Assembly (NCBI GenBank): GCA_965237675.1
Contig: OZ250150.1
Location: 1,696,001-1,760,000 of the forward strand
From: Candidatus Latescibacterota bacterium
Lineage (GTDB): Bacteria > Latescibacterota > UBA2968 > GCA-2709665
DNA length: 64,000 bases
Reading direction: 5' to 3'
This document shows positions 12,156 through 60,697 of this stretch, piece after piece (the first letter of the stretch is position 1; each line of letters starts with the position of its first letter). The notes under the pieces were generated by a model, which was not told where the DNA came from, made no database searches, and saw only the letters and a list, made by a program, of their open reading frames with translations. Made by a program: the position numbers and the translations under genes.

Positions 12156-12157
12156 AA

Positions 12158-18615: not shown

Positions 18616-18661
18616 TACCAGGGCGGGCGCGGTAGATCGAGCGCCGTTCTGAACGTGAGGA

Positions 18662-18699: not shown

Positions 18700-18810
18700 C
18701 TGAATAGGCTCCCGGCGAGAATAAGAACCGTGTCAGGTGAGAATAGAACGCATTGGCGGATCGGAGACGTGGCAACACACGCAGGATTGTCATCAGGGAG
18801 GAGCCGGGAA

Positions 18811-19791: not shown

Positions 19792-19819
19792 GGCCGCCGC
19801 GGAGGGCGGGAGATTTGAA

Positions 19820-24447: not shown

Positions 24448-24669
24448 CGCCATACGTGTGCCGCCGAAGGATAGGATTTCCGTACGTCTGCAGCAGGTCG
24501 GACGCTCTGTAGAGTCTGGCTTGGCCGTAGCAAGGGAGAGGGGTTACGTTTGTATTGCGGGACCGCGGGGTAGGTGTCTAGGACCCCGTATATCCAATGT
24601 AACCCGGCGTGGTGTTTCATCCGTATTGTTGGAAAAATCCCTTGAAACAGTCTTTACGAGGAGGTGGCC

Positions 24670-32127: not shown

Positions 32128-32197
32128 TAGCGGTCGGTGGCAGGACGAAGGTGACGGTCGGCTCCGAATTTTAGGGACTGAGGAGGGAGTCGGAGAG

Positions 32198-34936: not shown

Positions 34937-35071
34937 CCGTGGATCGTGCGGTTCCACGATACGCGACAAGGAAGCCAATATTTCCGTGCGACCCGGCGCC
35001 CGAATTCCCGCAACCTGTTTCCGGGACAATACACTCATGGTTCTTTCTTCAGGTGCAGGAGGTGGACTGAA

Positions 35072-36106: not shown

Positions 36107-36220
36107 CCGTTACCTCGACCGAGAGTGTCGGGGGCGCCTGGACACGGATTTCCGGTTGGTGCGGAAATCGCTGTGAGTTTTTTTCGGCGCCATGCGCTTG
36201 AACTATTCGGGAGGATGTGA

Positions 36221-44312: not shown

Positions 44313-44495
44313 AATTGTTCGATATAGAGCCTCAGGCCTGCTGACGTAAAGGCGGGGCACGCGACCTGAAGTTCCGGCATCGGAATCTTTTTCCCTATGA
44401 ACACTCAAGACATTTCGATATGTTGCGCTTGGTGGTTTCCGACCCCGTGCGACGCGAAATAAAGCAGGCGGCGCGGCGGGTCAGGCGCGAGGTCA

Positions 44496-46499
44496 GTGAC
44501 CACCGATTCGAACCAGGTTGCGTGGGAGACGGTTATGCAGCAAGCACAACAGGATTCACACCCTGAAACGTCAGTGGCCCAGGAGCGACGGGGCGTAACC
44601 GTGCGTGCGGTCGCCATCGGTCTTGGCGTGGCCCTTTTCATTCAGGGATGGGGCATTTTCTCCAGCCGGGTGATCCGGTCGTCCGGCGTGACGTCGGGTT
44701 TTCTTTCGCCAGCCCTCTTCATTGCGATCCTGCTTGTACTGTTCGTCCTGAATCCCCTCCTGAAACGGGTCCTGCGGTCTCGTGGGCTGAACCTTGCGGA
44801 GATACTTACGATTTTCGCGATGGGGCTGATGGGCGGCGCTCCCATCGCTGCATTGTATGCCTTTATCACGATTCCCTATTACCTGGCCACTCCCGAGAAC
44901 CAGTGGGGCAACCTCCTTCACCCCCACCTGCCTTCCTGGGTCGCGCCCCTCGACGTGGACGGCGCCGTCACACTTCTCTTCAACGGTTTGCCGGACGGTC
45001 GGGGGACGGTTCCCTGGGGTGCGTGGGTCGTGCCCATGTTCTGGTGGGTGCTGCTGTTCTGTGTGCTGGGGTTCGCGGCGGCCTCGCTTGCGGTTGTACT
45101 CCGGAAACAATGGGTGGAACACGAGCGGCTGCGGTACCCGGTCCTGGAACCGATCGTGGAAATGGCCAGGGGATCCGACACCGACGCTTGGTGGCCGCAG
45201 TTCGCCCGGGGTAAGCTGTTCTGGTTCGGCACGGGGATCGCGTTCGTGTTTATTTTCTGGAATGCGTTGCCCTGGATCTCACCGGCCTTTCCCGAGATGC
45301 CGGTTCGGGGACGGGTGTATGCCTTCTTCGGGCGGGATATGCCGCCGATGTTCAGCTATATCGATCCGTTCACCTTCGCGTTTTCCTATTTTGCAAATCT
45401 GGATGTCCTGTTCAGCGTCTGGTTCTTCTTCGCGGTGTTCGTGCTGGAATTCGGGATTTTCAACCGGCTGGGCTACAGCATCGGCGGGCGCGGCGACCGG
45501 TATGGTTCCTACGACGCGGCGTCGAGCTGGCAGGGTCTTGGCGCGTTCTGCGTTTTCGTGTTATTCGGACTTTGGATGGCCAGGCGCCATCTGAAAGACG
45601 TAGCGATGAAGGCGTGGCGGTCGGACCATCCCGTGGACGATTCGCGCGAGATGCTGTCGTATCGTACCGCGGTTGTGGGCATTGTGGTGGGTATTGTATT
45701 CACGGTCGTGTGGCTGAATCGGGCTGGGATGGACCTGCAGATGGCGATTCCACTGGTGGCGATGCTGTTCATTCTCTACATCGGAGTCGCGCGGATCATC
45801 GCCGAGTCGGGCCTGTTGTATGTGCAGGGGCCGATGACGGCGCAGAGCTTTTCGGTGTATCTGCTCGGCGCCAAAGCGGTGTCGCCGTCGAGTTTGACCA
45901 CGCTTCTGTTTTCCTATCCGATCCACGCGAATTCGACGTCGCAGATGTCGCACGTAGCCAAGGTGGCCGAAGGGATACGGGATCGGGGAAGGCGGCTGTT
46001 CTGGGCGGTCGTCCTGTCGTTCCTGGCGACGACCATAGTTGTGATCGTTGGGACGCTCTACCTGGGCTATGAACGGGGCGCCGAGAATTTCGGACACGGT
46101 TTTATCTGCGGGGGCGTGCACAATTTTCCGGATACGGTGAGCAAGATCAAGGAGCCATTCGACGTCGATTGGAATCGGATTATGTTTTTCGGTATCGGCG
46201 CCGCGGCCATGGCGGTCCTGACGTTCCTCCGCTACCGGTTTCCGTGGTGGCCGATTCATCCGGTCGGGTTCGCGATTATGGGGACGGATCTGGTACGGAA
46301 TTTTGCGTTGACGTTGTTTCTGGCATGGTCGTGCAAGTCGGTTATCCTGCGGGTGGGCGGGAACTCGCTGTTTCGACAGGCGCAGCCGTTTTTTCTTGGC
46401 CTGCTCGTAGGACACGTGCTGGGGATAACGGGTGCGTTTCTCGTGGATATGTTTATGTTTCCCGGGGCCGGACATAGCATCCACCCGTGGATTGAATAG
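44496..46499 (+). CDS. DUF6785/DUF6784-like multipass membrane protein (putative OPT-like transporter)
   Basis: Many hydrophobic helices. Motifs RGVTVRAV, YLATPENQW, PWGAWVVPMFWW, LRKQWVEHERLRYP, ARIIAESG, RYRFPWWPIHPVGF, PFFLGL. Start may be the ATG at 44535. Confidence 0.82.
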   Translation: MTTDSNQVAWETVMQQAQQDSHPETSVAQERRGVTVRAVAIGLGVALFIQGWGIFSSRVIRSSGVTSGFLSPALFIAILLVLFVLNPLLKRVLRSRGLNLAEILTIFAMGLMGGAPIAALYAFITIPYYLATPENQWGNLLHPHLPSWVAPLDVDGAVTLLFNGLPDGRGTVPWGAWVVPMFWWVLLFCVLGFAAASLAVVLRKQWVEHERLRYPVLEPIVEMARGSDTDAWWPQFARGKLFWFGTGIAFVFIFWNALPWISPAFPEMPVRGRVYAFFGRDMPPMFSYIDPFTFAFSYFANLDVLFSVWFFFAVFVLEFGIFNRLGYSIGGRGDRYGSYDAASSWQGLGAFCVFVLFGLWMARRHLKDVAMKAWRSDHPVDDSREMLSYRTAVVGIVVGIVFTVVWLNRAGMDLQMAIPLVAMLFILYIGVARIIAESGLLYVQGPMTAQSFSVYLLGAKAVSPSSLTTLLFSYPIHANSTSQMSHVAKVAEGIRDRGRRLFWAVVLSFLATTIVVIVGTLYLGYERGAENFGHGFICGGVHNFPDTVSKIKEPFDVDWNRIMFFGIGAAAMAVLTFLRYRFPWWPIHPVGFAIMGTDLVRNFALTLFLAWSCKSVILRVGGNSLFRQAQPFFLGLLVGHVLGITGAFLVDMFMFPGAGHSIHPWIE

Positions 46500-46517
46500 G
46501 CTGGCGTGCGAGGGTGA

Positions 46518-49500
46518 ATGATGTTTAATCGTCTCAAGAGGGTTCTTCTGGTTCTGCTGACGCTCGGCGTCCTCTCGCTCGTGGTGGTGTACGATCCCGA
46601 GGACGTGTCCGACGTGATACGGGATGCGCTCCATATCCGGCAGGTGGCGCCCCCCGAGCAAGCCCGGGGGGATCTCTCGGCCGAGGATCGGGCCGTTCGC
46701 CGGGTTGTGGATGCGATCACCGAAGAGGAGGTCCGGTCTCACGTGGCGGCATTAACCCGGATGCCGTCCCGCGTGGTGGGGTATGGCGGGGAGCGGCAGG
46801 CGCGGGATTACGTCCGGTCGCAATTCGAGGCGCTGGGTCTGGAGCGAATTACCACGGAAACGTTCGACGTGACCGTGCCAATCGACGCGGGAGGCGCGCT
46901 GAAGTTGACGGCAACCGGGGAGGAGATGCCCATTTACTGCCTCTGGCCTAACGATGTGCGTACCTCCACGCTTCCGGCCGACGGGGTTGGCGGGCCGCTG
47001 ATCTACGGGCGAAAGGGGGAATTCTCGGATTTCAACGGGTCGGTTGTGGACGGCAGCGTCGTGTTGATGGACTTCGGCTGCGGGCAGAATTACGTGAACG
47101 CACTGGCCCTCGGCGCCAAGGCGATTCTGTTCTTCGACGACGGCAACGTGACGCGCGGGGAGGCGGAGGACAAATTCCTGGAGGTGCCCGTGAATGCGCC
47201 CCGGTTCTGGGTAAACCGGGAGGATGCGCAGCGCCTCCTGAAGTGGATCCGGCGGGGGGATGCGCGGGTCCACCTGACGGGCAGGATGGACTGGAAGACG
47301 GTGGAGGCGGCAAATGTGTACGGGTATCTGCCCGGATCCGGGGAGCGCATTCCGGGAGGGACGGGCCGCAGGTGGAAGGACCGCCTGATTGTGGTGGGCG
47401 CGTATTACGACGCGATGTCGGTGGTGCCGGCGCTCGCTCCCGGCGCGGAAAGCGCCTCGGGAGTTGCCGCGTTGCTTGAGGTGGTCCGGTCGTTGAAGCA
47501 ACACGGTTCGAGGTACTCCTTCCTCTTTCTGGCGACATCCGCGCACTTTGAGGGATTGACGGGAATCAACGATTTCCTCTATCGACATTCCCGGCGAAGC
47601 GATTATTTCAGGGACCGGATTCCCGAAGGGGACCGCATTGACTTCAGCCTGTTCGTCGGGCTGGATCTGTCCAGCCGCAGCAGACAGGTGGGCGGATTTG
47701 CGATGGGAACATTCTACAACGCCGGCAAGGGAACGGACGAATACCTGAAGAATCTGCTGACGCCCTATTCGCACAGGTTCCGAGAGTACGCAACTGCGCT
47801 TTTCCAGGGTGAGGAGCGCTACGTGGACGTGGTGGCTCCGGCCAAGCGCCCCTGGACGTCGTTTATGCCGGTCCCCCTGGCCCTGGAGAGCGAGGCGGCG
47901 GTATTCGTGGGTCAGGAGGCCATGACGCTGGCGACCCTGTATGACGGCCGCGTCCGCACGGATACGCCAGCGGATCGTCCGGAGAAGATGGCGTTCGACC
48001 GGTTGACCGACCAGGTGCGTTCGGTGGCTGCAATGATGATCAGGGCGGGTAACGATCCGGGCTTTTTCCGGGAGACCCAGCTTCTCCTGATGGACCGGGG
48101 ACATCGCCTGGCCGGGCGTGTTCTCTGGTTCGACCGGGACGTGGACTTCGCGATTCCAAGGGTGCCGGTGCCGGGCGCGCTGGTGACGTACAAACAGCCG
48201 GGGCCCGGTAGCCTGGCCGGCGTTCGGACGCTGATGGTCACCCAGACCACCCGGGGCCCGATCTATGAAGCTCCGGACTCGAAAGGGGCGCTGTACGGTT
48301 CGCGGAACGCGATTGCGCAGACCGGTCGGTTTGCATTCGACATCGTAAGAAACCGGTTTTCCAACCAGATACTGGCTTACGAGATCGACGGAGAGGGGCG
48401 GATCGTTTCGGCCCCGGATATGGGAAGAGAGGGCGCCGGTCCGGATGGGAAAAACGGGAAATTTCCCCTGGTGCAGAGATACGGCTGGTGGGACAACGAG
48501 ATGATGAGTGTGCTGTTCAGGTGCCGGTCGCTGAGCCTCTTCGAAATTGTGGATTCGAGCTATCTCTCGGTGCTGGATCATATGAAGGTGCTGGGGCGGG
48601 ACAACAGCGAGCCGATCGAGTACGGTTTTCGGTACGTGGCCAACCAGGGCCGGAAGGAGGGAAAGGTCACGCAGGCGTCGGTGGCATTCGCTCCGCCGGG
48701 GGAACGAATCAAGATCCTGATGAGCAGCGGGCTCTTCGGAATCAAGTACCTGCTCATCAACGCGCCGGATGATCTGCTGACCGATCCCGTCGCTCCGCGG
48801 CAAGTGGATGCAGCCACGGTGAAACGTTCCATGGGAACAGGCTACGTCCCGGACGGGAACGTGATTTCCCTGCCTTCGTACAGGGCGGCGCGGGATATGT
48901 GGATCGTGGATGACGTGCGGATGAAGCAACTGGCTCGATACGGCGTGGAAAACCAGCGGCTTTCACGGCTTCACGATGACGCACGCGCGTCTCTTTTGGA
49001 GGCGAAACGCCACCTGGATAATCGCAGCTACGACCGGTTCATCGCAGCGGCCAGGAAAGGTTGGGGGCTGGAGGCGCGCGGCTACCCCGAGGTCAAGGAG
49101 ACGGCCAACGACACCGTGCGGGGCGTCATTTTCTATTTCGTCCTGTTGCTGCCGTTTTCGTTCTTTTGCGAGCGGCTGTTTTTCGGGTTTCCCGACGTCC
49201 AGCGACGGATCGTCGGATTCGCCGCGATTCTCGTCGCCATGTTCCTTGCGCTGCGGTGGGTGCATCCCGCGTTTCAGCTGTCCGGGTCTCCATACATCAT
49301 CTTTCTTGCGTTTGTGATTCTGTGCCTGGGAGGGATGGCGATGGTGATTGTGGTTTCCAGGTTCGCGGATCAGGTCAGGCGTTTGAAGCAGGCGGCTACG
49401 GGCGTGTACGAGGAGGATGTGGGGCGGATTTCCGCAACGATCGTGGCCTTTACACTGGGCGTATCGAATCTGCGAAAGCGCCCGTTGCGCAGCGGGCTGA

Positions 49501-51233
49501 CGGCCGTCACACTCACGTTGTTGACGTTCACGGTGCTTTCGTTCACGTCAGTTCAGACGTATCTGCGCTTTTATAAGCTGCCGAGGGACAACCGCCCGCC
49601 CTACCAGGGCGCGCTGGTGAGAGACCGCAATTGGAGAGGGATGCAGCCTTCCGTGCTGACCTACATCCAGAGCCATTTTGGCGGTTTCGCCAGGGTGGCG
49701 CCCCGGGCATTCTACATTTCCGAAAAGCGGGGCGAGCGTGCGTATATCGACTTTGAGGAACCGGTAAGCGGCCGGCGGAGTTTCGCGAACGGTTTGTTGG
49801 GTGTGACGCCACAGGAACCGAAGATAATGGGTATGGACCGGCTGCTGGCGGCTGGCCGGTGGTTCATGGAGGGAGAACGCCACGCGGTCATCCTGCCTGG
49901 AGAACTGGCGGAACTGGTGGGGATCTCTCACGCGGACGTGGAAGCCGGGCGGGCGCGGGTGCGTATGTTGGGGGTCGAGCTTGCCGTTATCGGCATCCTG
50001 GATTCCAGGGCGGTCGACAGGCTGGCGGACATGGACGACGAACGGTTGACGCCCATCGACACCACAATGGAGACAGCGGGGACGAGCGACTGGCGCAACC
50101 TGAGCCAGGACCCGAGGTTGATGGGAGCGGAGCCGATCGAGGCGTTTATCCACCTGGACGCCAGCAATACGGCGTTGCTTCCGTACGAATTCGTCGTTGA
50201 AATGGGGGGCACGCTCCGGTCGATTGCGATCACCGATTTCAGAGATGCGCAGGGCAACCCGAGCCCGGACGTCCGGCGGCAGATCGAAGAGTTCATGTCC
50301 CGTGTGGCGCTGACCATGTTTGTTGGGATCGGCGAAGAGGTGGCCGTCTACAGTTCGATCGGAACCACGTCGCTTTCAGGCATCGCGAATCTCTTCATAC
50401 CGCTTTTGATCGCCTCCCTGATCGTTCTGAATACGATGATGGGCGCCGTATACGAAAGGTTCCGGGAAATCGGTGTGTACTCGGCCGTGGGGCTGGCGCC
50501 GAGCCACATTTCCGCGCTGTTTCTCGCCGAAGCGGCCGTGTTCGCCACGCTGGGCGCGGCGTTCGGTTACCTGATCGGCCAGGCCGTGGCGATGTTTCTG
50601 TACGAGCGCGGTGCGCTGGGTGGGTTGTCGTTGAACTATTCGTCGCTTTCGGCCGTTTCTTCAACGCTGCTGGTGATGTTGGCGGTGTTCCTGTCCACCC
50701 TCTATCCGGCCAGGAAGGCCGAGCAGATGTCCGTGCCCGACGTGACCCGGCGGTGGCAGTTTCCACATCCGAAGGGAGACGAATGGACTTTTGACTTTCC
50801 GTTTACACTGGCCGGATCGGAAGCCCTTGGGATGTATACGTATCTCTTTCGGTGTTTCGAGTCCTTCGGCGAGGGCTCTCTTGGCAGGTTTGTTTCGCGG
50901 GATGTGCGCTTTCAGTCCGAGCCACTTTCGGCTGGCACGGGGTACAAGATCGCGCTGCGGATGTGGCTGGCTCCCTACGATATGGGCATCAGCCAGGATG
51001 TCCAGATGAATGCGATTTCCACGGGAGAACACGAGATATACCGCATCGAGGTTCGAATCCATCGCCTGAGCGGAGACGTGAACTCCTGGCAGCGGGTGAA
51101 TCGAGGCTTCCTGAACGACATCCGCAAGCTCTTTCTGGTATGGAAAACAATGCCTCCGGAAACAAAGACGGACTATGCCCGGCAGGGCCAGGCGGAACTG
51201 GAGACGTCGGCGGGCCGGGAGGTCGTGTCTTGA
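46518..51233 (+). CDS. 1571-aa fusion: M28 peptidase-like/PA extracytoplasmic domain + FtsX/MacB-like ABC permease
   Basis: N-terminal TM. SRVVGYGGE, a PA-like insert and IVVGAYYD...APGAESASGVAALLE. Then a TM bundle, NLRKRPLRSGLT, AGRWF and LNTMMGAVYERFREIGVYSAVGLAP...FLAEA...YPARKA (FtsX/MacB C-terminal signature). Confidence 0.85.
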   Translation: MMFNRLKRVLLVLLTLGVLSLVVVYDPEDVSDVIRDALHIRQVAPPEQARGDLSAEDRAVRRVVDAITEEEVRSHVAALTRMPSRVVGYGGERQARDYVRSQFEALGLERITTETFDVTVPIDAGGALKLTATGEEMPIYCLWPNDVRTSTLPADGVGGPLIYGRKGEFSDFNGSVVDGSVVLMDFGCGQNYVNALALGAKAILFFDDGNVTRGEAEDKFLEVPVNAPRFWVNREDAQRLLKWIRRGDARVHLTGRMDWKTVEAANVYGYLPGSGERIPGGTGRRWKDRLIVVGAYYDAMSVVPALAPGAESASGVAALLEVVRSLKQHGSRYSFLFLATSAHFEGLTGINDFLYRHSRRSDYFRDRIPEGDRIDFSLFVGLDLSSRSRQVGGFAMGTFYNAGKGTDEYLKNLLTPYSHRFREYATALFQGEERYVDVVAPAKRPWTSFMPVPLALESEAAVFVGQEAMTLATLYDGRVRTDTPADRPEKMAFDRLTDQVRSVAAMMIRAGNDPGFFRETQLLLMDRGHRLAGRVLWFDRDVDFAIPRVPVPGALVTYKQPGPGSLAGVRTLMVTQTTRGPIYEAPDSKGALYGSRNAIAQTGRFAFDIVRNRFSNQILAYEIDGEGRIVSAPDMGREGAGPDGKNGKFPLVQRYGWWDNEMMSVLFRCRSLSLFEIVDSSYLSVLDHMKVLGRDNSEPIEYGFRYVANQGRKEGKVTQASVAFAPPGERIKILMSSGLFGIKYLLINAPDDLLTDPVAPRQVDAATVKRSMGTGYVPDGNVISLPSYRAARDMWIVDDVRMKQLARYGVENQRLSRLHDDARASLLEAKRHLDNRSYDRFIAAARKGWGLEARGYPEVKETANDTVRGVIFYFVLLLPFSFFCERLFFGFPDVQRRIVGFAAILVAMFLALRWVHPAFQLSGSPYIIFLAFVILCLGGMAMVIVVSRFADQVRRLKQAATGVYEEDVGRISATIVAFTLGVSNLRKRPLRSGLTAVTLTLLTFTVLSFTSVQTYLRFYKLPRDNRPPYQGALVRDRNWRGMQPSVLTYIQSHFGGFARVAPRAFYISEKRGERAYIDFEEPVSGRRSFANGLLGVTPQEPKIMGMDRLLAAGRWFMEGERHAVILPGELAELVGISHADVEAGRARVRMLGVELAVIGILDSRAVDRLADMDDERLTPIDTTMETAGTSDWRNLSQDPRLMGAEPIEAFIHLDASNTALLPYEFVVEMGGTLRSIAITDFRDAQGNPSPDVRRQIEEFMSRVALTMFVGIGEEVAVYSSIGTTSLSGIANLFIPLLIASLIVLNTMMGAVYERFREIGVYSAVGLAPSHISALFLAEAAVFATLGAAFGYLIGQAVAMFLYERGALGGLSLNYSSLSAVSSTLLVMLAVFLSTLYPARKAEQMSVPDVTRRWQFPHPKGDEWTFDFPFTLAGSEALGMYTYLFRCFESFGEGSLGRFVSRDVRFQSEPLSAGTGYKIALRMWLAPYDMGISQDVQMNAISTGEHEIYRIEVRIHRLSGDVNSWQRVNRGFLNDIRKLFLVWKTMPPETKTDYARQGQAELETSAGREVVS

Positions 51234-51258
51234 ACGCACACGCGAGGGAAAACGCGGT

Positions 51259-53226
51259 ATGCCGAGACCTGCCGGGCAACGCGAAGCGGCGGTAGCCGGC
51301 ACGAAGTCGGCTTTGCGCGGGGTTTCGGTGCGCGCCCTGAGCGTTGGTCTGGGTATTGCCGCCCTGCACAATTTCTGGAGCCTGCACTCGCTCTATATCA
51401 TCCGGGGATCATGGCTTAACCGGACGCACTTCCCCATGGGCGTGTTCGTGCCGTTCCTGATCCTTGTTCTGACGGTGCCCGCCCTCCGGCGGTTCGTTCC
51501 CAGGATGGCGTTGTCCGGCCCGGAACTCCTGGTGGCGCTGTGCGCGGGCCTGGCGGGTGGGATGGTGCCCACGTTCGGTCTGTCCACGACCTGGATCGGG
51601 ATGCTGGCGATCCCCCACTATCTTGCCACGCCCGAGAATATGTGGGGAGAGTACCTGCTGCCCCACGTACCCGGCTGGATGTTGCCTTCAAACGCGCAGG
51701 GGGCCATGAGATGGCTCTTTGAGGGTCTGCCGCCCGGTGAGGGGATTCCCTGGCACGCGTGGGCGGCCCCGATGTTCTGGTGGACGGCGCTGCTAGGCGG
51801 GATGGCGCTGGTTTCTTTCTGCACGGTCGTGGTGTTGCACCGTCAGTGGTCGGGGCACGAACGCCTGGCCTATCCCATTCCCGCGGTGGCCGTGGATATG
51901 GCGGAGGGAGCCGAGGGCAGAGGCGAGTGGGCCGGGTTGTTGCGGAACCGGTTGTTCATTGCGGGGATGCTTGCCGCGCTGACGATCAAGGTCTGGAACC
52001 TGGTTCCGGCCTTTGTTCACGGATTTCCGATGATCCGGTTGTTTCACCAGCAGTTGTGGGTGCACTTTACGCAATACACACAGGTCCATGTGAGCCTGAA
52101 TTTCTATACCATCGGGTTCGCGTATTTGACCGGCCTGGACCTGCTGCTGAGTATCTGGCTGTTCCATCTGTTTTACATTCTGGAGATCGCGGCTTTCGCA
52201 CGGGTTGGGCTGGGGATTGCCGGATTTTCCGGCGGGGTCGTATCCTGGCAGGGCGGCGGCGCGATGATGTGCTACGTGGGCCTGGCGTTATGGACCGCCC
52301 GGGGGCACCTCAAACGCGTGGTTCGCCGGGCACTGGGGCAGGGGGGCGGAGCGGACGACGCCGGGGCGCTGATGGGCTACAGGTGGGCGGTTTCGGGTCT
52401 GATTCTGGGGGTGGCCTTTGTGATCTGCTGGTTGCGGATGGCGGGCATGGGTCTTCCCCTGGCCACGGCGCTGACCGTGTTCCTGTTCACAAGCTACCTG
52501 GGCCTCGCCAGGGTTGTCGCGCAGACCGGCCTGCTTTACGTCAACTTCCCCCTCAGCGGGCAGGCGCTGATTCTGGGCACGTTGGGCGCGGCCTCCATCC
52601 CGGCGCCGGGGCTCACGGCCATGGCCTTTACAAACGTGTTCGCCAATGACAGCATGGGCCTGTTCATGCCGGCCTTCGCGCAGATCGCAAAGCTGGCCGA
52701 ACGGGTGGAGCGGCACCGGAGGCGTTTGGGCTGGGTTGTGGCGCTGGGCCTGTTGACCAGCATTGCGGCGTCGGTGGTGCTGACACTGTATTGGGGGTAT
52801 TTCGGCGGGGCGTACAATTTTGGAAGTATCGCGCTTTTCCGAAGGACGGTGCCCAGCGTGAACGGGTACGTAAGCCATATGCGCAGCCCGGATCCCGTTC
52901 AGGCGGCGCCGTTTATTCTCTTTGCGGCCGGCGCGGCGGGCATGGCCCTGCTGGCGTTCCTGCGATACCGGTTCAACTGGTGGCCGGTGCACCCGGCCGG
53001 GTTGGCCGTGGCCTACACGGGGTTGACGAAGCACGCTGCTTTCAGCATCTTTGCCGCCTGGATCTGCAAGTTTATCGTGATCAAGACCGGGGGGATGCTG
53101 CTCTATCGACGGACGGTACCATTTTTTATCGGGACGATCGTGGGCTATGCGCTGTCCGTCGCCCTCGGATACGTACTGGATGTGATCTGGTTCGAAGGGC
53201 AGGGGCACGCCGTGCACGCATATTGA
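51259..53226 (+). CDS. Second DUF6785/DUF6784-like multipass membrane protein
   Basis: Paralog of 44496..46499: RGVSVRAL, YLATPENMW, PWHAWAAPMFWW, LHRQWSGHERLAYP, ARVVAQTG, RYRFNWWPVHPAGL, PFFIG. Confidence 0.82.
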   Translation: MPRPAGQREAAVAGTKSALRGVSVRALSVGLGIAALHNFWSLHSLYIIRGSWLNRTHFPMGVFVPFLILVLTVPALRRFVPRMALSGPELLVALCAGLAGGMVPTFGLSTTWIGMLAIPHYLATPENMWGEYLLPHVPGWMLPSNAQGAMRWLFEGLPPGEGIPWHAWAAPMFWWTALLGGMALVSFCTVVVLHRQWSGHERLAYPIPAVAVDMAEGAEGRGEWAGLLRNRLFIAGMLAALTIKVWNLVPAFVHGFPMIRLFHQQLWVHFTQYTQVHVSLNFYTIGFAYLTGLDLLLSIWLFHLFYILEIAAFARVGLGIAGFSGGVVSWQGGGAMMCYVGLALWTARGHLKRVVRRALGQGGGADDAGALMGYRWAVSGLILGVAFVICWLRMAGMGLPLATALTVFLFTSYLGLARVVAQTGLLYVNFPLSGQALILGTLGAASIPAPGLTAMAFTNVFANDSMGLFMPAFAQIAKLAERVERHRRRLGWVVALGLLTSIAASVVLTLYWGYFGGAYNFGSIALFRRTVPSVNGYVSHMRSPDPVQAAPFILFAAGAAGMALLAFLRYRFNWWPVHPAGLAVAYTGLTKHAAFSIFAAWICKFIVIKTGGMLLYRRTVPFFIGTIVGYALSVALGYVLDVIWFEGQGHAVHAY

Positions 53227-53257: not shown

Positions 53258-56200
53258 ATGCGTATTCCACCGGTGTACACGGAACGGAAGGATCTCAATC
53301 TCGATACGGAACTGGTCCGAAACGGCCGGGCGAACGTCACGATCGTGGTTCCGGAAGGGCGGCTTTACGGTGGCCCGTCGAAACGCCTGCAGGCGGCTAT
53401 TCAGGCGCGGACCGGCGTGCGCGTGCCCATTGCCGAGGAAACGTCCAAGGCAGGAGCCGCGCCCATTTCCGCACACGTGATCGTGCTGGGCAACCGGTCC
53501 AGCAGCCGCACGATAGAAGCGCTCTACAACCAATACTACACGCTGCTGGATCTGCGCTATCCGGGGCCGGGCGGGTACGAGGTCCGGTCGCTTCACAATC
53601 CGTTCGGTAACGGGTACAATGTGATCTTCGTGGGCGGTAGCGATGAAGACGGTGTGTCGGCGGCAGCCGATGCGCTGGCGAGAAGGGTGTCCGAAGCGGA
53701 GGGCGAAGAAGGCGCGCTTTCGCTGGGTTGGCTGATGGAGATTGAACTGGGACGGGGGATCGCGGTACCACGGGACATCCGGGATTTTGAGACCTGGGAG
53801 GCCTCCGCGGGATACGGATCGGTGGGGTATTTCGGGTGGAACAGCATCAGCAAGCGGATGGCCATGTACTATATGACGGGAGACCCCTTCCACGCGCGGG
53901 AAGCCCTCCGGCTGGCCTTCCCGGACGATCGGGCAAAGGCAGAGATAACCGAGATCGACGGGGAACGGATCGAGAACAAGGACGAGCCGCTCGGCGGTCC
54001 CTACCACTACAACGCGCATATGATGATTCTGTACTGGGATCTGATTGAGGAAAGTCCGGTGTTTACGGATGATGAACGCCTGCGGGTGACAAACGCCTTC
54101 GCGTCTCAGTTCGGCCACGCGCAGGACCAGGGCGCGCGCAGGCAGGTGGCGGAGAATGTGCGACGCGGCGCGAGGGGTTTCGGAGACCCGCCGCGCAGCG
54201 TGGGGTCGCGGCACGGGCAGTGGTCCGCGATTTCGCTCTACTGCCTGGGGCGTTACTTCCAGACCCATTACCCGCATGAACTCTGGGAGCAGTCCATGGA
54301 GGCGGCGAGGTGGCATTTTGCATCGCTGCATCGCCACGCCTGGGTCGACGGGGAGCAGGACAATCTGTTCTGGTACAATACCGGGATGGCCCCCGTTCTG
54401 AGTTATATGCTGATTACCGGGGACCGCAAGCCGATGGATAACGGGGTGCTGGACACCCTCCTTCGCGGGCAGGAGATCCTGGCCTCGGGACGTGAGCCGG
54501 ACTGGGCGTTGAATTCGGCGTCAATCGGTTTTCTCAACAAGGCCGCCTATCTGACGAAGGACGGCCGCTACCTCGAATACCTGCGCCGTACCGGCATGGA
54601 CCTGGACGTCTTCCGGCTGGGGCAGTCCTTCTGGCCTGAGGGCGGCCTTACGGCGAAGCAGCCCACGGATCTTGTGAACAGGTGGTGCATCCATCCCATC
54701 CCGGAGCCGATGTGGCGGGAACGCGCGGGCGGATTGCCACTGGAAGAGTCCTTCCTGTTCGGAAGCTTTCGGAGCGCGGCCGATGCCACGGGCGATTTCA
54801 TCCTGGTGAAGGGGATGAACGGCGCGTCGCGTAACGCGTACCATACCTTTGTGATTCTGGAACTGCGACTGGGCGGACAGACGCTGCTGGAAGGCTATTT
54901 GAACCAGGTGCTGACCCGGTCGGACGGGACCGTGGAGCCGGCGGTGGCGATGGATTCGGCGTTGAAGTATCGGGGTGTGGTTGGAGGCGCCGCCGTGGTT
55001 GTCGGCGAAGTGCCGAGAGCGGCGTTCTGTTCCTGGCGGCGAACACTGGTTCAGCGCATCGGCCGGTACGCGTTGTTTGCGGACGAACTGACCTTTCGCG
55101 CGGACAGCGCAGAGTTGGAGGTGGAGGTCCTGTGGCAGGGCAAGGGCGCGTGGGAGGTGTTGCCGGACCGGGGCGCGGTCCGGATTCGGGATGTCGCGGA
55201 GATCCGCATGTCGGATCCGATGGAGACTGCCGTTGCTGACGGGCAGGCACGCATGGCCTGGCGGGGAATCGTGGAAAAGGGAAGCGGGAGATGCTTTTTC
55301 TCGCTGGTGGGAGGGACGGGGACAGCATGCGCGCGGCTGGGTGTCAATGCGGCGGCCCTGGCGCTGCCCGAGCCGGCGGTTGCCGCCCTGGGCGAATACC
55401 AGGGACTTCATGGAGATCTGGTCGTTCTGGCGTCCAGCCACCTCCATGGCGTCAATGCGACCGATGTCGCTTTTGGCGATCTGCTGTTCCACGCAAGCGC
55501 GCCGGTGCAGGTCGACTGGGACTTTCATAGCGGCACCCTGGAGGTGGTTGCGGGTGAGGAGGTCGAATTACGCCTGGCCGTCGCCGATCCGGGTAGCGCG
55601 CGCGTGGGCGGAAGCGTTCCCGGGGGCGGTTCGGATGACTCCGGTATGTTGACCATCGGAATCCCCGCGGGGCGGCATACGGTTTCGGGCGTGTTACCCG
55701 ATGCGGATACGATTGAAAAGGTGACCGCACGGCTCGAGGGCCTTCTGGAGCAGGGCCGCGAGGCCAGAAGGCTATCCGCGGCCGCGCCATCGCCTGTTCT
55801 GCCGGATGTACCCTCCATGGCGCCTGTTTTCGCCACCGGCGTGGGTGGTGCGGTGGTAGACCTCGTCGTCGCCGATTCTGGCGAGGAAACGCGAATCTGT
55901 GCGGCTGAGGCTAAGAATGTCCACGTGTTGTCACAGGAGGGGAAAGAACTCCGAACCCTGCGGACGGATGGTCCCATCCGTCTCCTCCACTGGTGGGCGG
56001 AGCACAACCTGCTCCTGGCGGGATGTGTGGACGAGAAGGTCATTGCGTTCGATCCGGATACGGGAGATCGGCAATGGACGTTTGTGTCCGAGGAAGACCC
56101 GGCGGTGTTCCAGGCCGCAAAACCGTACTGGTTCAAGACGGCGCCGGGGCACGCGGGCGTTCATGGACTCCATTCCGGCGTGTTCCTGGATGGCGAAAGC

Positions 56201-56974
56201 CAGGCATTCGTGGGCAGCGCCTGCACACTCGAAATACTGGATCATGATGGAAATCTCGTGAAACGGCTTCCGGTATTCTGGGGCCCGGGTTCGCGGTTTG
56301 CCCTGATGGACCGACCCGACGGCAGCATTGATCTTCTGATTGCACGGCAGCCCACGGATTCGCACGCGATGGCCGTTGTGAACAACCGCGAGTTGGACCC
56401 GAAACAGCGCGGCTTCCAAGACGTGCCGGACGGACATACGAATATAGGCGGGTGGGCGTGCATGAGCCGGAAGCACATCTTTAACGAGGATCTGGACGGG
56501 GACGGCAGGAGGGAAGTGGTCAGCGAGATCAACGGGACCTGGAACCGGGTGACGGTCTGGACGGAGGATGGGCGGGCGCTGCACAACGTCCACCTCGGCC
56601 CGGGGCAGCGCATTCCGGCGGACAACGTGCGGGATTTCGACGTTGTCGACCTGGATGGCGATGGCAGAAAAGAGCTCCTCGCGGCGCTTTCGGGCGGGCT
56701 GATACTTGCCCTCGATCACCAATGTGAGAAGGTCTGGGCAAGGCGGCTGCCTTTTCCACCGACGGTGATGGCAGGCATTGGAGCCGGGGGCGGCGCCAGG
56801 GTCGTGGCCGGCTGCGAAGACGGTACGCTGGTCGTCCTGGATGGCGGTGGCAAGGTCGTCGGGTCGGGCAGGATGACGGGGAGGCCGACCGGAATTGTCC
56901 GTGTGGATGGAAATGTCGTTCTGGCAACGGATCAGGGGGAGGTCACGGGATGGCGGGTGGATAACCGCAGGTAA
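53258..56974 (+). CDS. Large heparinase II/III-like-fold protein with C-terminal beta-propeller (paralog 3, divergent)
   Basis: Shares YPGPGGYEVRSLHNPFGNGYNVI, LSLGWLM, WDLIEESPVFTDDERLRVT and DLDGDG propeller repeats with paralogs 1, 2 and 4. Confidence 0.75.
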   Translation: MRIPPVYTERKDLNLDTELVRNGRANVTIVVPEGRLYGGPSKRLQAAIQARTGVRVPIAEETSKAGAAPISAHVIVLGNRSSSRTIEALYNQYYTLLDLRYPGPGGYEVRSLHNPFGNGYNVIFVGGSDEDGVSAAADALARRVSEAEGEEGALSLGWLMEIELGRGIAVPRDIRDFETWEASAGYGSVGYFGWNSISKRMAMYYMTGDPFHAREALRLAFPDDRAKAEITEIDGERIENKDEPLGGPYHYNAHMMILYWDLIEESPVFTDDERLRVTNAFASQFGHAQDQGARRQVAENVRRGARGFGDPPRSVGSRHGQWSAISLYCLGRYFQTHYPHELWEQSMEAARWHFASLHRHAWVDGEQDNLFWYNTGMAPVLSYMLITGDRKPMDNGVLDTLLRGQEILASGREPDWALNSASIGFLNKAAYLTKDGRYLEYLRRTGMDLDVFRLGQSFWPEGGLTAKQPTDLVNRWCIHPIPEPMWRERAGGLPLEESFLFGSFRSAADATGDFILVKGMNGASRNAYHTFVILELRLGGQTLLEGYLNQVLTRSDGTVEPAVAMDSALKYRGVVGGAAVVVGEVPRAAFCSWRRTLVQRIGRYALFADELTFRADSAELEVEVLWQGKGAWEVLPDRGAVRIRDVAEIRMSDPMETAVADGQARMAWRGIVEKGSGRCFFSLVGGTGTACARLGVNAAALALPEPAVAALGEYQGLHGDLVVLASSHLHGVNATDVAFGDLLFHASAPVQVDWDFHSGTLEVVAGEEVELRLAVADPGSARVGGSVPGGGSDDSGMLTIGIPAGRHTVSGVLPDADTIEKVTARLEGLLEQGREARRLSAAAPSPVLPDVPSMAPVFATGVGGAVVDLVVADSGEETRICAAEAKNVHVLSQEGKELRTLRTDGPIRLLHWWAEHNLLLAGCVDEKVIAFDPDTGDRQWTFVSEEDPAVFQAAKPYWFKTAPGHAGVHGLHSGVFLDGESQAFVGSACTLEILDHDGNLVKRLPVFWGPGSRFALMDRPDGSIDLLIARQPTDSHAMAVVNNRELDPKQRGFQDVPDGHTNIGGWACMSRKHIFNEDLDGDGRREVVSEINGTWNRVTVWTEDGRALHNVHLGPGQRIPADNVRDFDVVDLDGDGRKELLAALSGGLILALDHQCEKVWARRLPFPPTVMAGIGAGGGARVVAGCEDGTLVVLDGGGKVVGSGRMTGRPTGIVRVDGNVVLATDQGEVTGWRVDNRR

Positions 56975-56998
56975 GCTGGACAACGGTCAGGAGGAAAA

Positions 56999-59900
56999 AT
57001 GGACGCGGATCGAGGGCCGGTCGGACTGAAAATCGATACGTTGAGACAAATGCACCTGGAGACGGTGCTGGCGGCAGACCGCGAACCCGGTGGGAAGATC
57101 GTCATCGGGGAAAATCCGGAGCACCAGCGGCAGGCGCAACGCATCGTGGAATGTATTCAATCGGCCACGGGCGCCCGTCTGCCGGTCGTCCGCGCCGATG
57201 ACGCGACAGGGGGAGGCCTGCTTGACAGTCACGTGGTCGCTCTGGGAAATATGGCCGACAACCCCTTTGTCCGCTGGCTGTATCACCAGTGGTGGGCCAT
57301 AGAGGATCTCTGTTATCCCGGCGAGGGAGGGTATACGCTCCGTACGCTGCACAACCTGCTGGGAAACGGGAAGAATGTGGTCCTGCTGGGAGCCAGCGAC
57401 GAAAGCGGGCTGGACCGCGCGGCATCCCGTTTTTTGTCGCGGGTCGGCGCGGGCGAGAGGCTGAGTTTCGGTTGGCTGATGGACGTCGCGCCGGGCCCGG
57501 CCTTCGATTCTCTCGAACATCCGCCGGACGGGTGGCTTGAGGAGCGGCGGGAGGATTTTATCGGACGGGTAAGCCAGCCGCATGCCTCCGAAGCGGGGGC
57601 AGGCCACGGGATGGTTACGGAGGCGGGAAGGCAGGGCCTGGCATATCATCGGACGGGGTTCGAGGTCTATGCGAAGGCATTGCGCGAGGCGGTGGATGCG
57701 CATCTGAAGATGGGGGAGCACGGCGTGATGGCCCACTTCAACGTGTGGTGGCTTGCGGTGATCTGGGACCTGATCGAGGAGAGTCCGGTGTTTTCAGACG
57801 CGGATCGCCTGCGGATCACGCGGTATCTGCTGTGGATTATGGATTCGCAGGAGGGCGCGTACAACCCCTTCTTCCGCCAGGGGGTGGGTCACCGGATGGT
57901 GCGGCAGAACCACCAGACGCTGGTGGGTCTTTCGTCGTGGTTCGCGGGTCGATACTTCTCCACGCATTACGAAATGCCGGAGGCGGAGGAATGGCAGGCG
58001 GCGTCAGCGGATCTGTTCAAGGGGCAGGCGGAGTCCTTCAAGCCGACCGAGGATGCGAATGCCTACCAGTGGACGACACTGGACCATCTCCTGACCTATA
58101 CGCTGGCCAGCGGGGACAGGACGTACGTTGAAAACGGAAATTGCCGCCGGTCGCTGGACCAGGCGGTATTGTACTGCAACAATCTCGGGGCCATGCCGGC
58201 GTTCGGCGACTCGGGGGGATGCCAGGTACCTCCACCGGCCAGTTTCCTGGTGAAAGCGGGGCACGTACTGCGGGATGGCCGTGCGGAGTTCCTGATTCGC
58301 GCGCGATCGGACCGGGTTTCGCTTGTACACGGATTCGAGAAATATTTCTGCGATGGCCTGGAACCCGAGGCGCCCCGGGAAATGGCAGGCGTGCGGATAC
58401 TTGAGGTGGCGAAGGGATTCTACGATTTCGCCAGCGACCCGATGGCGCGCCCGTCGGAAGTAAAACCTCTCAATCTGCCGCTGGACACGGCGTTCGATAC
58501 GGTGTGTTTTCGAGAGGGTTTCGACCGGGCGGATCAGTACCTGATGCTGCACGGGATTTCCTACGGCAACCACGGGCACGACGACGGAAACACAATTGTG
58601 GAGTTCTCCGCGAATGACCGGGTGTTCCTGGTGGACGCCTCTTACACGGAGGGGCCCACCCTGAAACATCACAACGGGTGCACGGCGGTCCGAAACGGAG
58701 AGCCCTGGCAGGTGCCCGCGCTGTGCCGTCTGGAGGGGCTGGCGGACCTCGACCGTATGGGAATGAGCCGGACATCGATGGAAGTGGAATCGGGAGCGCG
58801 GTGGACCCGAAATATGGTATGGCGGGTCGGCCGGTTCTTCGTCGCCATCGATGAAATCCAGGCCACTGAAGCGGGTGCGTTCGCACTCCAATGCAACTGG
58901 CGGACGCTGGGGACGCCCACGCTGGACGGGAATCGGCTGGAGACCGTCCAGAAGGATCCGGACGACGGGCGGGAGGATCGGTTCGTTCTGGAAGGTGTGG
59001 GCGGTGACCGCATTGATATGGAGCGGGATTGGGAGGCTTTCGGGCATTGGTGGAAGGACTATCCGTACTCGGACGATTACGTCAATATCCTGCGTCAGTC
59101 CGTCAACCGCGAGATGGCGGCGGGAGACCGGCACACCTTCATCAATCTGTTTTACGCGACAAACGACACGAAACCGCTGGACGTGCGGATGCGTCGTGTT
59201 GGGGAGTCCGCGATCCTGGTGGAGGGATCGGAGGGGCGGATGCTGATCGGGACAGGCGGCGCCGACGGGACGTTTGCGGTTGGACCCGTGTCCGGAAAGG
59301 CCGACGTCTACGCGATCGGGCCGGGCTGGTTCACCCTGTGCGGGGGAACGCTGTTGCGCGGGGAAACAACGCTATTCGAAAGCGACGCCCCGGTGTCCGT
59401 TGAGTTCGACCTGGAGACGGGCGTCGGTGTGGCAGACGTATCGGAACCCGCAAACGCTGAGTTGTGCGGAGGGGTGCATACGCTCTCGGCCGGGAAACAG
59501 CGCGTGCGCCAGGCGCCCGCGGGCAGTGGCGGTATACCGGAACGTGTGTGGCGCCTGGACGATTGGCGGGCAGGCGCGGAGAAACGCGTACGGCCGGCAT
59601 CGGCGGCATCCCTGCGCCCTGTATGGTCGCGCGACTTCGGGTCGGCGGTACGATGTGTGGCGCGCAGGGGCGATGGCGTGGTTGCAGGTATGGAGGACGG
59701 GCGCGTGGTTGCATTGTGGGAGGGAGGAGAGCCCGACTGGACCTTCCGGGCGGGGGATGCGGTGCTGTCGGTGTGCGCGGCGGGGCAGGCCGGGGACGCC
59801 CGCTCACCGGTGGCGGCCGGGGCAAACGACCGGCGCCTCTATTTTCTGGAGCATGACGGCGCCGTGCGCTGGTCCCACGAGTTCGCGATCTTTCGAGGAG

Positions 59901-60697
59901 GGTGGGAGTGGTATACCCGGAACTCCTCGGTTGAACTGGTCAAGTCCGCGGACCTTCGCGGCACGGGACGGCCGGATATTCTCGCTGCGGTCACCGACCG
60001 GCAACTCCACTGTTTCGACGCGGACGGCAACAAACGCTGGAACTTCTTCATCTACGGGATCTTCGACCCCTTTTGCCTGGCGGATGTCAATGGAGACGGC
60101 CGTCCGGAGGTGATCGGCGGGCCGGGCCGGATTTCCTGCGGGGGAACGTGCTATGTGCTGGACGCGGACGGCAGCCAAATCGCCAGCAACGGGCTGGACG
60201 GTTGGCCGTCGATGCTACCGGGGTGCGACGTGTATCTGTACGAAAATGGCGACAATCTGATCGCGTGCGGTACGACCCGGTCGAAGGTTCACGCGCTTCG
60301 GCTTGACGGCGATTCTCTGACACCCCAGTGGTCACGGGAGGTGGGTGAAGAGGTGCACGCGGTTGCGGCGGTGGACGTGGACGGGGATGGGAGGCCCGAA
60401 GTCGCGGCCGGATCGGATTGTTTCTACATCTACCTGTTCGATGAAAACGGCGCCGAGCGATGGCGGCGCAACCTGGAGGCGCCCGTGCGCCGGCTGGTTG
60501 CCACCGACGTCAATGGAGATGGCCGGCCGGAAATTGTCGCCGGATGTGACGACGGGAGCGTATGGATACTGGACGGAGATGGACAGACCCTCGGTGTCCA
60601 CCGTTCAGAGGCGAAGATTCACGCCCTGACGCCCCACGGAGAAGGCCGCCTGCTGCTCGGGTGTTCGGACGGGACCCTTTCGATGCTGGGTCTCTGA
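56999..60697 (+). CDS. Large heparinase II/III-like protein with C-terminal beta-propeller (paralog 4, close to paralog 1)
   Basis: Colinear with 24670..28407, with long identical blocks (FDTVCFREGF, DQYLMLHGI, LVDASYTEGPTLKHHNG, GDRHTFINLFYA). RBS AGGAGG. Confidence 0.82.
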   Translation: MDADRGPVGLKIDTLRQMHLETVLAADREPGGKIVIGENPEHQRQAQRIVECIQSATGARLPVVRADDATGGGLLDSHVVALGNMADNPFVRWLYHQWWAIEDLCYPGEGGYTLRTLHNLLGNGKNVVLLGASDESGLDRAASRFLSRVGAGERLSFGWLMDVAPGPAFDSLEHPPDGWLEERREDFIGRVSQPHASEAGAGHGMVTEAGRQGLAYHRTGFEVYAKALREAVDAHLKMGEHGVMAHFNVWWLAVIWDLIEESPVFSDADRLRITRYLLWIMDSQEGAYNPFFRQGVGHRMVRQNHQTLVGLSSWFAGRYFSTHYEMPEAEEWQAASADLFKGQAESFKPTEDANAYQWTTLDHLLTYTLASGDRTYVENGNCRRSLDQAVLYCNNLGAMPAFGDSGGCQVPPPASFLVKAGHVLRDGRAEFLIRARSDRVSLVHGFEKYFCDGLEPEAPREMAGVRILEVAKGFYDFASDPMARPSEVKPLNLPLDTAFDTVCFREGFDRADQYLMLHGISYGNHGHDDGNTIVEFSANDRVFLVDASYTEGPTLKHHNGCTAVRNGEPWQVPALCRLEGLADLDRMGMSRTSMEVESGARWTRNMVWRVGRFFVAIDEIQATEAGAFALQCNWRTLGTPTLDGNRLETVQKDPDDGREDRFVLEGVGGDRIDMERDWEAFGHWWKDYPYSDDYVNILRQSVNREMAAGDRHTFINLFYATNDTKPLDVRMRRVGESAILVEGSEGRMLIGTGGADGTFAVGPVSGKADVYAIGPGWFTLCGGTLLRGETTLFESDAPVSVEFDLETGVGVADVSEPANAELCGGVHTLSAGKQRVRQAPAGSGGIPERVWRLDDWRAGAEKRVRPASAASLRPVWSRDFGSAVRCVARRGDGVVAGMEDGRVVALWEGGEPDWTFRAGDAVLSVCAAGQAGDARSPVAAGANDRRLYFLEHDGAVRWSHEFAIFRGGWEWYTRNSSVELVKSADLRGTGRPDILAAVTDRQLHCFDADGNKRWNFFIYGIFDPFCLADVNGDGRPEVIGGPGRISCGGTCYVLDADGSQIASNGLDGWPSMLPGCDVYLYENGDNLIACGTTRSKVHALRLDGDSLTPQWSREVGEEVHAVAAVDVDGDGRPEVAAGSDCFYIYLFDENGAERWRRNLEAPVRRLVATDVNGDGRPEIVAGCDDGSVWILDGDGQTLGVHRSEAKIHALTPHGEGRLLLGCSDGTLSMLGL

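Follow-up and report, generated by a model that had tools for sequence, protein, structure and literature searches.

A conserved Latescibacterota locus joining OPT/YSL-fold DUF6785 proteins to a giant FtsX/M28-like membrane protein, a candidate uptake module

The uncultured Latescibacterota are widespread and degrade algal and other polymers. Here, we describe a three-gene locus (the trio) of a Candidatus Latescibacterota bacterium (GCA_965237675.1, contig OZ250150.1), found at positions 44496-53226 of a 64-kb stretch (C1:1696001-1760000; the window) of the 5.6-Mb genome, whose nearest genomes in public records are metagenome-assembled genomes labelled Latescibacterota or Gemmatimonadota. The trio consists of three co-directional open reading frames (ORFs) on the + strand, of which the first and third encode polytopic membrane proteins with DUF6785 and DUF6784 domains (carriers 1 and 2), and the middle one a giant protein that joins a remodelled M28-like ectodomain to a MacB/FtsX-type unit (Table 1). 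These parts belong to known superfamilies, and their combination is without a described counterpart in the literature searched; we weigh below whether they form a module for uptake across the inner membrane.

The three genes and their products

The trio genes are separated by gaps of 18 and 25 nt, in agreement with the three-gene layout given in an earlier note that had been made from the sequence alone. The true start of carrier 1 is probably ATG 44535, giving 654 aa, because the 92%-identical relative P0124 aligns from residue 14. The ORF of carrier 2 is open from 51175 (683 aa), and its orthologues start at the position matching 51259, the start that yields the 25-nt gap. A sigma-70 promoter scan returned 4 sites against 3.9 in shuffled sequence, i.e. 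no excess, and a weak terminator-like hairpin (44371-44386) lies ahead of the trio.

Carriers 1 and 2 share 36% identity across 663 residues (E 5e-129) and three motifs, YLATPENQW/YLATPENMW, QWVEHERLRYP/QWSGHERLAYP and WWPIHPVG/WWPVHPAG (carrier 1/carrier 2). Both pass the Pfam gathering cut-offs for DUF6785 (PF20581, 25 bits) and DUF6784 (PF20580, 26.4 bits), with E 2.7e-100 (336.7 bits) and E 1.6e-23 (83.2 bits) for carrier 1 and E 8.3e-99 (331.8 bits) and E 3.2e-20 (72.6 bits) for carrier 2, which confirms that the outer proteins are DUF6785-like paralogues, as had been suggested. No NCBIfam family was found for either, and a search of 1.84 billion cluster representatives gave 4550 matches at E <= 1e-3 and 858 at E <= 1e-30. 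An AlphaFold2 model of carrier 1 (alignment of 117 sequences; pLDDT 92.6, pTM 0.92) has two significant Foldseek matches in the PDB, both to barley Yellow Stripe 1 (HvYS1; E 1e-7 and 1e-6, TM-score 0.58-0.64), with the predicted OPT/YSL fold extending across the whole chain. Neither carrier matches Pfam OPT (PF03169) at E <= 0.01 or reaches its gathering score; a sub-threshold OPT match lies inside a paralogue (E 0.0059, 16.7 bits), and hhalign aligned eight canonical OPT proteins of the phylum, from other genomes, to the DUF6785 alignment over 429 columns (92.2%, E 5.8e-7). This match superposes the ERLxYP (ERL.FP) segment of DUF6785 on the OPT L.YPEG segment, a likeness that the earlier note had already seen. 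On the combined strength of sequence comparison and modelling, the outer proteins are distant members of the OPT/Yellow-Stripe superfamily. They resemble its known members (PF03169; HvYS1, PDB 7WSR/7WST) in their remote homology to the phylum's canonical OPT proteins and in their size of about 650 aa, but are only 11-12% identical to HvYS1, fall into separate Pfam families and belong to a massively expanded group, and the papers searched describe no pairing with an FtsX-type partner.

HvYS1 works as a symporter driven by protons, for which an elevator mechanism has been proposed, and forms a homodimer via its scaffold domain, according to the available part of its structural report (PMC9691689). 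Because this sole structural relative is a proton-coupled, elevator-type carrier, the outer proteins are by analogy probably proton-coupled, elevator-like permeases of the carrier type, and not the channel that had been suggested; because it dimerises through its scaffold domain, paired carriers are plausible.

The giant has, by hydropathy, an N-terminal anchor (residues 6-24), an ectodomain (25-865), three transmembrane helices (TMs; 866-945), a cytoplasmic linker, FtsX TM1 (994-1012), a periplasmic domain (1013-1283), three further TMs (1286-1395) and a tail (1400-1571). Its Pfam matches are to FtsX (53.2 bits, cut-off 25.5) and Peptidase_M28 (27.1 bits, cut-off 21.3), with PA slightly below the cut-off (21.6 bits against 23.9), and its family counts at least 389 full-length-type homologues that are annotated only as hypothetical, FtsX-like or M28.

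The head of the giant has the PA-inserted M28 fold by profile (2ek8 1.7e-15, YwaD 5e-11, nicalin 3.6e-5, transferrin receptor 7e-3), in common with PA-domain M28 aminopeptidases (PDB 2EK8; YwaD, 6HC6), transferrin receptor and nicalin. The metal ligands of the M28 reference enzymes, which we take to be H, D, E, D and H along with a catalytic Glu, are replaced. In alignments to 2ek8/1amp the first H corresponds to Y295 (AYYD), the D to E311 (PGAE) and the EE pair to H343-F344 (HFEG), while the last H corresponds to D482 (DTPAD) in a weak second alignment stretch and the fourth ligand (Asp) falls outside the aligned positions. Canonical patterns were seen in none of 117 full-length relatives at three sites, the replacements being PGAE in 108, HF[QE]G in 91 and DTP.D in 116, and the first metal site varies (H/Y/F) across the family. 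Similar to M28 in fold and sequence and lacking the canonical zinc ligands and catalytic Glu, the head is, judged by these residues, not a canonical aminopeptidase; since the replacement residues are themselves conserved, a remodelled, altered binding site is possible. The head further differs from M28 aminopeptidases in being membrane-tethered and fused to a permease. The rest of the ectodomain, about 350 residues, gave no Pfam or PDB sequence match.

The three extra TMs that follow are highly conserved (PFSFFCER and HPAF motifs, alignment A2). Beyond them, the C-terminal half matches MacB, LolCDE, YtrEF, HrtBA, BceAB, YbbAP and FtsEX by structure and sequence, and contains the four-TM FtsX unit, in which an extracytoplasmic domain separates TM1 from TM2, one such unit per chain. 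The proposed make-up of the middle protein, an M28/PA-like ectodomain joined to a MacB/FtsX permease, is borne out by these Pfam, profile and structural matches. The cytoplasmic TM2-TM3 loop, ERFREIG, is invariant in alignment A2; in MacB the corresponding loop is the helix that couples to the nucleotide-binding domain (PMC5985334, in the part available). The C-terminal cytoplasmic domain lacks a Walker A motif and is not an ATPase, and an Atlas search with it returned no usable match.

The giant is like these ATP-binding cassette (ABC) systems of type VII in its four-TM unit, TM1-TM2 periplasmic domain and conserved TM2-TM3 loop, and by analogy would be expected to act by mechanotransmission (PMC5985334, same part). 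Unlike them, it has no ATPase fused or adjacent at the trio locus, carries an 865-residue N-terminal ectodomain and three extra TMs before the unit and a 165-residue non-ATPase cytoplasmic domain after it, and has OPT-fold carriers, sometimes fused, as its constant partners. As in FtsEX-EnvC and FtsEX-PcsB, so far as the available extracts describe them, the ATP cycle on the cytoplasmic side would set in motion an extracytoplasmic domain that does not itself transport; in contrast to those systems, the giant's effector is fused and not recruited, is peptidase-like and not a coiled-coil/LytM activator, and the genomic partners are carriers, not cell-wall hydrolases.

Table 1. Positions of the trio, the parts of its giant protein and other genes discussed (window positions, unless C1 or a locus number (L) is given)
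Feature	Position	Strand	Basis
Carrier 1, predicted OPT/YSL fold (Pfam DUF6785 + DUF6784)	44496..46499	+	667 aa from GTG 44496
Giant membrane protein, 1571 aa	46518..51233	+	Pfam, hydropathy topology, homologues
Carrier 2, predicted OPT/YSL fold (DUF6785 + DUF6784)	51259..53226	+	655 aa from ATG 51259; Pfam, identity to carrier 1
Giant: PA-inserted M28-like domain, residues ~58-515	46689..48062	+	alignments to 2ek8/1amp, profile matches, motif counts
Giant: ectodomain region, fold unassigned, residues ~516-865	48063..49112	+	Pfam/PDB searches
Giant: three extra TMs, residues ~866-945	49113..49352	+	hydropathy; invariant columns, alignment A2
Giant: MacB/FtsX-type unit, residues ~967-1400	49416..50717	+	amphipathic helix, TM1, MacB_PCD-like periplasmic domain, TM2-4
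Giant: C-terminal cytoplasmic alpha+beta domain, residues ~1405-1571	50730..51230	+	among the best-conserved parts, alignment A2
X genes, own genome	L049:7807-9861 = C1:5235206-5237260; L042:2258-4723 = C1:3142057-3144522		
Further X genes	L027:16532-18520; L068:5509-7548		
Orphan LolD/MacB-class ATPase, 262 aa	C1:3152023-3152811 (own genome) = L042:12224-13012	-	upstream of a paralogous DUF6785-giant-X locus
Compact cluster, small genomes of two other families	L077:865-13866 (G044), L076, L078, L080		same strand throughout
Upstream heparinase II/III-like gene, 1063 aa	41121..44312	+	hhalign 98.2%, E 2.8e-14, 481 columns
Two downstream ~1235-aa paralogues	53258..60697 (53258-56974, 56999-60697)	+	Pfam, hhalign, hydropathy

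Conserved linkage, fusions and the X family

Giants and OPT-like genes are linked well beyond the trio. We examined 47 giants (21 evaluable public-contig loci, 22 giants in 20 loci from relatives, three paralogues of the own genome and the window itself; locus L031, where the contig ends inside the gene, was left out), and a DUF6785 gene or a gene of a second family, X, directly adjoins 44 of them, including all four giants of the own genome. The exceptions are L055, L065 and L063, the last with a DUF6785 gene 3.8 kb away. The count overstates independence because many loci are orthologous; the adjacency spans at least five paralogue groups with differing gene orders (D, DUF6785; G, giant: D-G-D, D-G-X, G-D-X, G-X, D-G, G-D and D-G-D-G), and some junctions overlap by 4 nt. 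Tandem DUF6785-giant-DUF6785-giant arrays, with genes overlapping or nearly abutting, were observed in two genomes (L066 in G017, L067 in G015).

Natural end-to-end fusions of a giant to DUF6785+DUF6784 (1926-2140 aa) form at least five clusters at 90% identity, with full-length members from many assemblies, some on contigs several Mb long, and with an acidic linker of 30-50 residues that is compatible with the predicted topology; one such protein, of 2088 aa, belongs to the P0274 cluster. All 31 close relatives have 2-9 giant matches each. Across the phylum, giants occur in 67 of 81 sampled genomes and DUF6785 likewise in 67, both are absent from family f9 (0 of 13 genomes), and the two disagree in two genomes only (57% and 67% complete); since the genomes are related, this shared pattern amounts to essentially one or a few events. 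Adjacency, fusions and phyletic pattern together sustain the earlier proposal of a gene module in the sense of a conserved genomic unit.

The X proteins, encoded directly after giants, are polytopic (660-960 aa, 10-11 predicted TMs), 39-78% identical to one another, and have a conserved N-terminal motif, FE.GFN.KT...PGAIYLGLVTGQ. Pfam gave nothing relevant for them even at E 10 and NCBIfam no family; hhalign matched X to the DUF6785 profile (95.6%, E 1.2e-8), and canonical OPT to X at 19.7% only. In the Atlas, X neighbours clusters called peptide transporter, in which 15-33% of members carry OPT; the OPT-annotated clusters near it come from Lentisphaerota, Armatimonadota and Verrucomicrobiota. 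The own genome has two X genes, each following a giant. In most related giant loci there is a single DUF6785 gene or DUF6785 plus X rather than a DUF6785 pair, and by the locus census the slot of carrier 2 is held elsewhere by an X protein or a fused DUF6785.

The DUF6785 family itself is expanded: the own genome has 23 genes, several as tandem pairs, and first-look candidates in relatives number up to 68. Canonical OPT was not found in the own genome and occurs in 16 of the 81 sampled genomes.

A complex prediction with residues 967-1019 and 1280-1571 of the giant as two chains and residues 20-655 of carrier 2 scored 0.01 and 0.09 against a mark of 0.32, without controls; neither the ectodomain nor the extra TMs or the periplasmic domain were part of the design, and the result is neutral on binding.

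ATPases and neighbouring genes

All 63 ABC_tran matches of the genome lie outside the window (nearest, C1:1646055 and C1:1833603), which thus has no ABC ATPase, as the earlier note had said, and of 22 related loci 21 have none at a distance of up to 10 kb. The note had also called for a search for a LolD/FtsE-like ATPase elsewhere, and an orphan LolD/MacB-class ATPase of 262 aa was found beside a paralogous giant locus. Its best scores are to LolD, FtsE, DevA, YbbA and MacB models, all below cut-offs. It stands directly upstream of the paralogous D-G-X locus in the own genome and in three others (G008, G015, G021), 5 kb upstream in G017, adjacent by coordinates in four (G001, G009, G012, G014), and at 18 kb and 8 kb in G023 and G027. 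Between two families with 66% identity in their giants, it shows 82-85% identity. No FtsX was seen among the 26 ORFs scanned around it in five of five genomes (G016, G019, G023, G026, G027), where its constant divergent neighbour is a xylose-isomerase-like TIM-barrel gene. Because this ATPase adjoins a paralogous giant, the system need not work without one.

A second ATPase group, 56-63% identical to the first, is found in every giant-bearing family and is paired with an FtsX-domain protein of 228-238 aa; none was found in f9 at E <= 1e-85. In the own genome the pair (C1:5516256-5517770) lies elsewhere, beside an S41 peptidase. In the four small genomes with the compact cluster, it follows on the same strand (four genes downstream), the order being DUF6785, TPR (237 aa), giant, X, a 294-aa gene, PqqD-like (125-134 aa), small FtsX (228 aa) and ABC ATPase (245 aa). 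The small FtsX protein could be a heterodimer partner of the single-unit giant, and either ATPase group could drive giants.

Genes on both sides of the trio encode proteins that are remotely like heparinase II/III. The upstream gene also has a weak PL-type alginate lyase match (E 0.03), and the two downstream paralogues (mutual BLASTP 1e-43) combine a heparinase II/III-like middle with an FG-GAP/propeller C-terminus, their family aligning with heparinase II/III at 97.2% (hhalign, E 2.8e-11; the reference alignment was made of five Pfam-positive proteins of the own genome). Hydropathy detected no N-terminal hydrophobic segment in these flanking proteins, a fourth heparinase-like protein or the GFO oxidoreductases, and did detect one in the TonB-dependent receptor, the ASPIC/FG-GAP and TPR proteins and two dockerin-bearing proteins of the window. 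The earlier description of the flanks as heparinase-like genes without signal peptides holds as to the missing hydrophobic segment and as remote homology, but none of the three genes has a Pfam Hepar_II_III match at E <= 0.01. By their sequences the flanking heparinase-like proteins are of the cytoplasmic type, and so would fit a route by which oligomers are taken up and then processed in the cytoplasm. The 29 window ORFs scanned (those of at least 250 aa) yielded no solute-binding family, in keeping with the note's statement that a classic solute-binding protein is missing, and the sole other transport-type gene among them encodes the TonB-dependent receptor.

Near DUF6785 and giant genes of the own genome, sugar-related neighbours include GFO/IDH/MocA, PhyH, xylose-isomerase-like TIM barrels, UxuA, sulfatase, heparinase-like and GH-like domains; PhyH-like dioxygenases, GFO/IDH/MocA and the TIM barrels recur beside DUF6785 genes.

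Several further features of these regions were observed. A fused S-adenosylmethionine decarboxylase/spermidine synthase (AdoMetDC/spermidine synthase) directly follows a paralogous DUF6785-giant pair (L045:16018-17325; C1:4310117-4311424 in the own genome); the substrates of plant YSL proteins derive from S-adenosylmethionine. The window holds four paralogous ~1230-aa proteins without an N-terminal hydrophobic segment (24664-28407, 28453-32127, 53258-56974, 56999-60697), each with a middle remotely like heparinase II/III and a C-terminus like FG-GAP or a lambda-carrageenase propeller; a cytoplasm-type architecture is unusual for domains of this kind. Upstream (4354-22072) is a block of envelope or secreted type, including the TonB-dependent receptor with a CarboxypepD_reg domain, a PorV-like protein, two FGE-sulfatase (formylglycine-generating) genes, TPR proteins (one with GWxTD) and two ASPIC/UnbV FG-GAP proteins. 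Dockerin/EF-hand-like calcium-binding modules (32045-34936 and 37956-39989) are carried by a secreted heparinase II/III-like protein and by a 677-aa protein with a weak S55-like stretch. The catabolic cluster is broken by genes for a CNNM/CBS membrane protein and an N6/N4 DNA methylase (34946-37492 and 1529-2512), and a DDE transposase lies near the window start on the - strand.

A candidate uptake module and its alternatives

We consider the chances evenly balanced that the trio is one inner-membrane uptake module, made of OPT-fold carriers with the FtsX/M28-like giant as an accessory. In such a module, the two DUF6785+DUF6784 carriers would perform translocation, the periplasmic head of the giant would capture or position a substrate for them, and a LolD/MacB-class ATPase, with its gene in another part of the genome, would probably move the head. 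The cargo at this locus would most likely be an oligomeric breakdown product, perhaps an acidic oligosaccharide, bound for the cytoplasm-type heparinase II/III-like enzymes whose genes flank the trio. A physical complex of defined stoichiometry, inward transport, the class of substrate and drive by ATP are all parts that we infer. The three-gene inner-membrane importer of the earlier note is retained as to the conserved module, its OPT-, MacB- and M28-like assignments and its cytoplasm-type context, but not as to the channel or to a heterodimer of two paralogues as a general rule, given the single-DUF6785 and DUF6785-plus-X loci and the giant-free copies counted next.

Several observations weigh against this reading. 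Only four of the 23 DUF6785 genes of the own genome adjoin a giant and 19 do not, and on a quick maximum-likelihood tree (49 sequences) giant-adjacent and solo copies are interspersed, with 8 label changes over 42 labelled rows, at least 6 of them forced by well-supported branches, and with carrier 2 as sister to a solo paralogue. The idea that giant-adjacent carriers form a single specialised clade was rejected on this tree. Because adjacent and solo copies are interspersed, carriers probably act on their own, and what the giant contributes may be optional or regulatory; since most carriers are also solo, the giant looks like an accessory gained or lost by several carrier lineages. In G016, G019 and G026 the 262-aa ATPase is remote from every giant, and its orthologues (group A, >= 71% identity) were seen only in families f1, f2, f5, f10 and f12, i.e. 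in five of 12 giant-bearing families, which weakens this ATPase as a universal partner. The heparinase assignment of the flanking genes draws on small alignments of 5-6 sequences, and their lack of signal peptides was judged by hydropathy only. Known OPT substrates, in the extracts available, are peptides, glutathione and metal chelates, not oligosaccharides. The survey for carbohydrate genes that the note had recommended did find sugar-acid enzymes beside paralogues, but also amino-acid and amine enzymes: aminotransferases, gamma-glutamyltranspeptidase, amidohydrolases, CN hydrolase, OpuAC, M14, the AdoMetDC/spermidine-synthase fusion, BKACE and enolase-superfamily genes. The association with carbohydrate genes by which the note had proposed to judge its importer is thus borne out only in part. 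Because the neighbours are mixed in this way, the DUF6785/giant family is not glycan-specific. Our literature search found no experiment on any family member, and no paper that mentions DUF6785, DUF6784, or FtsX together with Peptidase_M28.

The cargo could accordingly be of another kind, the module being the same and transporting something peptide-like, amino-acid-derived or a metal chelate, with the head as a non-hydrolysing receptor for peptides or amino termini and the heparinase-like neighbours as one context of many. The OPT/YSL fold and remote homology, with the substrate range just named, speak for such a cargo, as do the inactive transferrin-receptor and nicalin-type relatives of the M28/PA fold and the aminotransferase, gamma-glutamyltranspeptidase, amidohydrolase, M14 and AdoMetDC/spermidine-synthase genes beside paralogues; we nevertheless hold it to be rather unlikely, given that the trio sits inside a co-directional run of heparinase II/III-like and GFO oxidoreductase genes and that many paralogues adjoin UxuA, xylose-isomerase-like TIM barrels and GH-like proteins. 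It is improbable that the giant is instead a sensor or regulator, gating or stabilising carriers through its FtsX unit and cytoplasmic domain, or that the module acts in the outward direction, for export or upkeep of the envelope. Instead of importing, type VII ABC systems perform work or transmit signals outside the membrane, according to the available portions of two sources (PMC5985334; PMC12646458), the non-ATPase cytoplasmic domain is strongly conserved and carriers occur without giants, but the covalent fusions and 4-nt overlaps point to a complex of fixed stoichiometry and not to a transient regulator, Pfam finds no transcription-factor or kinase domain in the giant, and the catabolic context favours uptake. 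That the adjacency is functionally meaningless, with DUF6785 proteins as autonomous permeases and the giant as an unrelated syntenic envelope machine, agrees with the predominance of solo DUF6785 genes, the three giants without an OPT-like neighbour and the non-independence of orthologous loci, but is very improbable in view of its recurrence in at least five paralogue groups and differing orders (D-G-D, D-G-X, G-D-X, G-X, D-G), the position of both own-genome X genes after a giant, the recurrent fusions and the shared phyletic pattern.

Within the uptake module that we favour, a more specific version is possible, if doubtful: a hybrid importer in which an ATP-driven MacB-type protein uses its fused, receptor-like pseudo-peptidase head to pick up periplasmic oligomers and pass them to proton-coupled elevator carriers. 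TRAP and TTT systems, in which an extracytoplasmic binding component serves a secondary carrier, are similar by analogy only, with no homology, and differ in that the receptor of the giant would be membrane-anchored and possibly ATP-driven. A hybrid importer, if true, would be a third receptor-to-carrier route besides binding-protein ABC importers and TRAP/TTT, and, since genomes carry up to dozens of DUF6785 genes, Latescibacterota would have in it a principal system of nutrient uptake.

A Latescibacteria genome paper lists ABC, symport and PTS transporters, with no mention of OPT or FtsX in its available part (PMC4454575). DUF6785 is, though unannotated, the most expanded transporter-like family seen here, and its giant-linked members would combine a secondary carrier with type VII ABC mechanotransmission, so far known only separately; the natural single-chain giant-carrier fusions are convenient for structural work. 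Import of oligomers, if true, would extend the OPT superfamily to a new class of substrate and provide it with a new type of accessory, and would explain how the many cytoplasmic heparinase-like enzymes of these bacteria are supplied with substrate.

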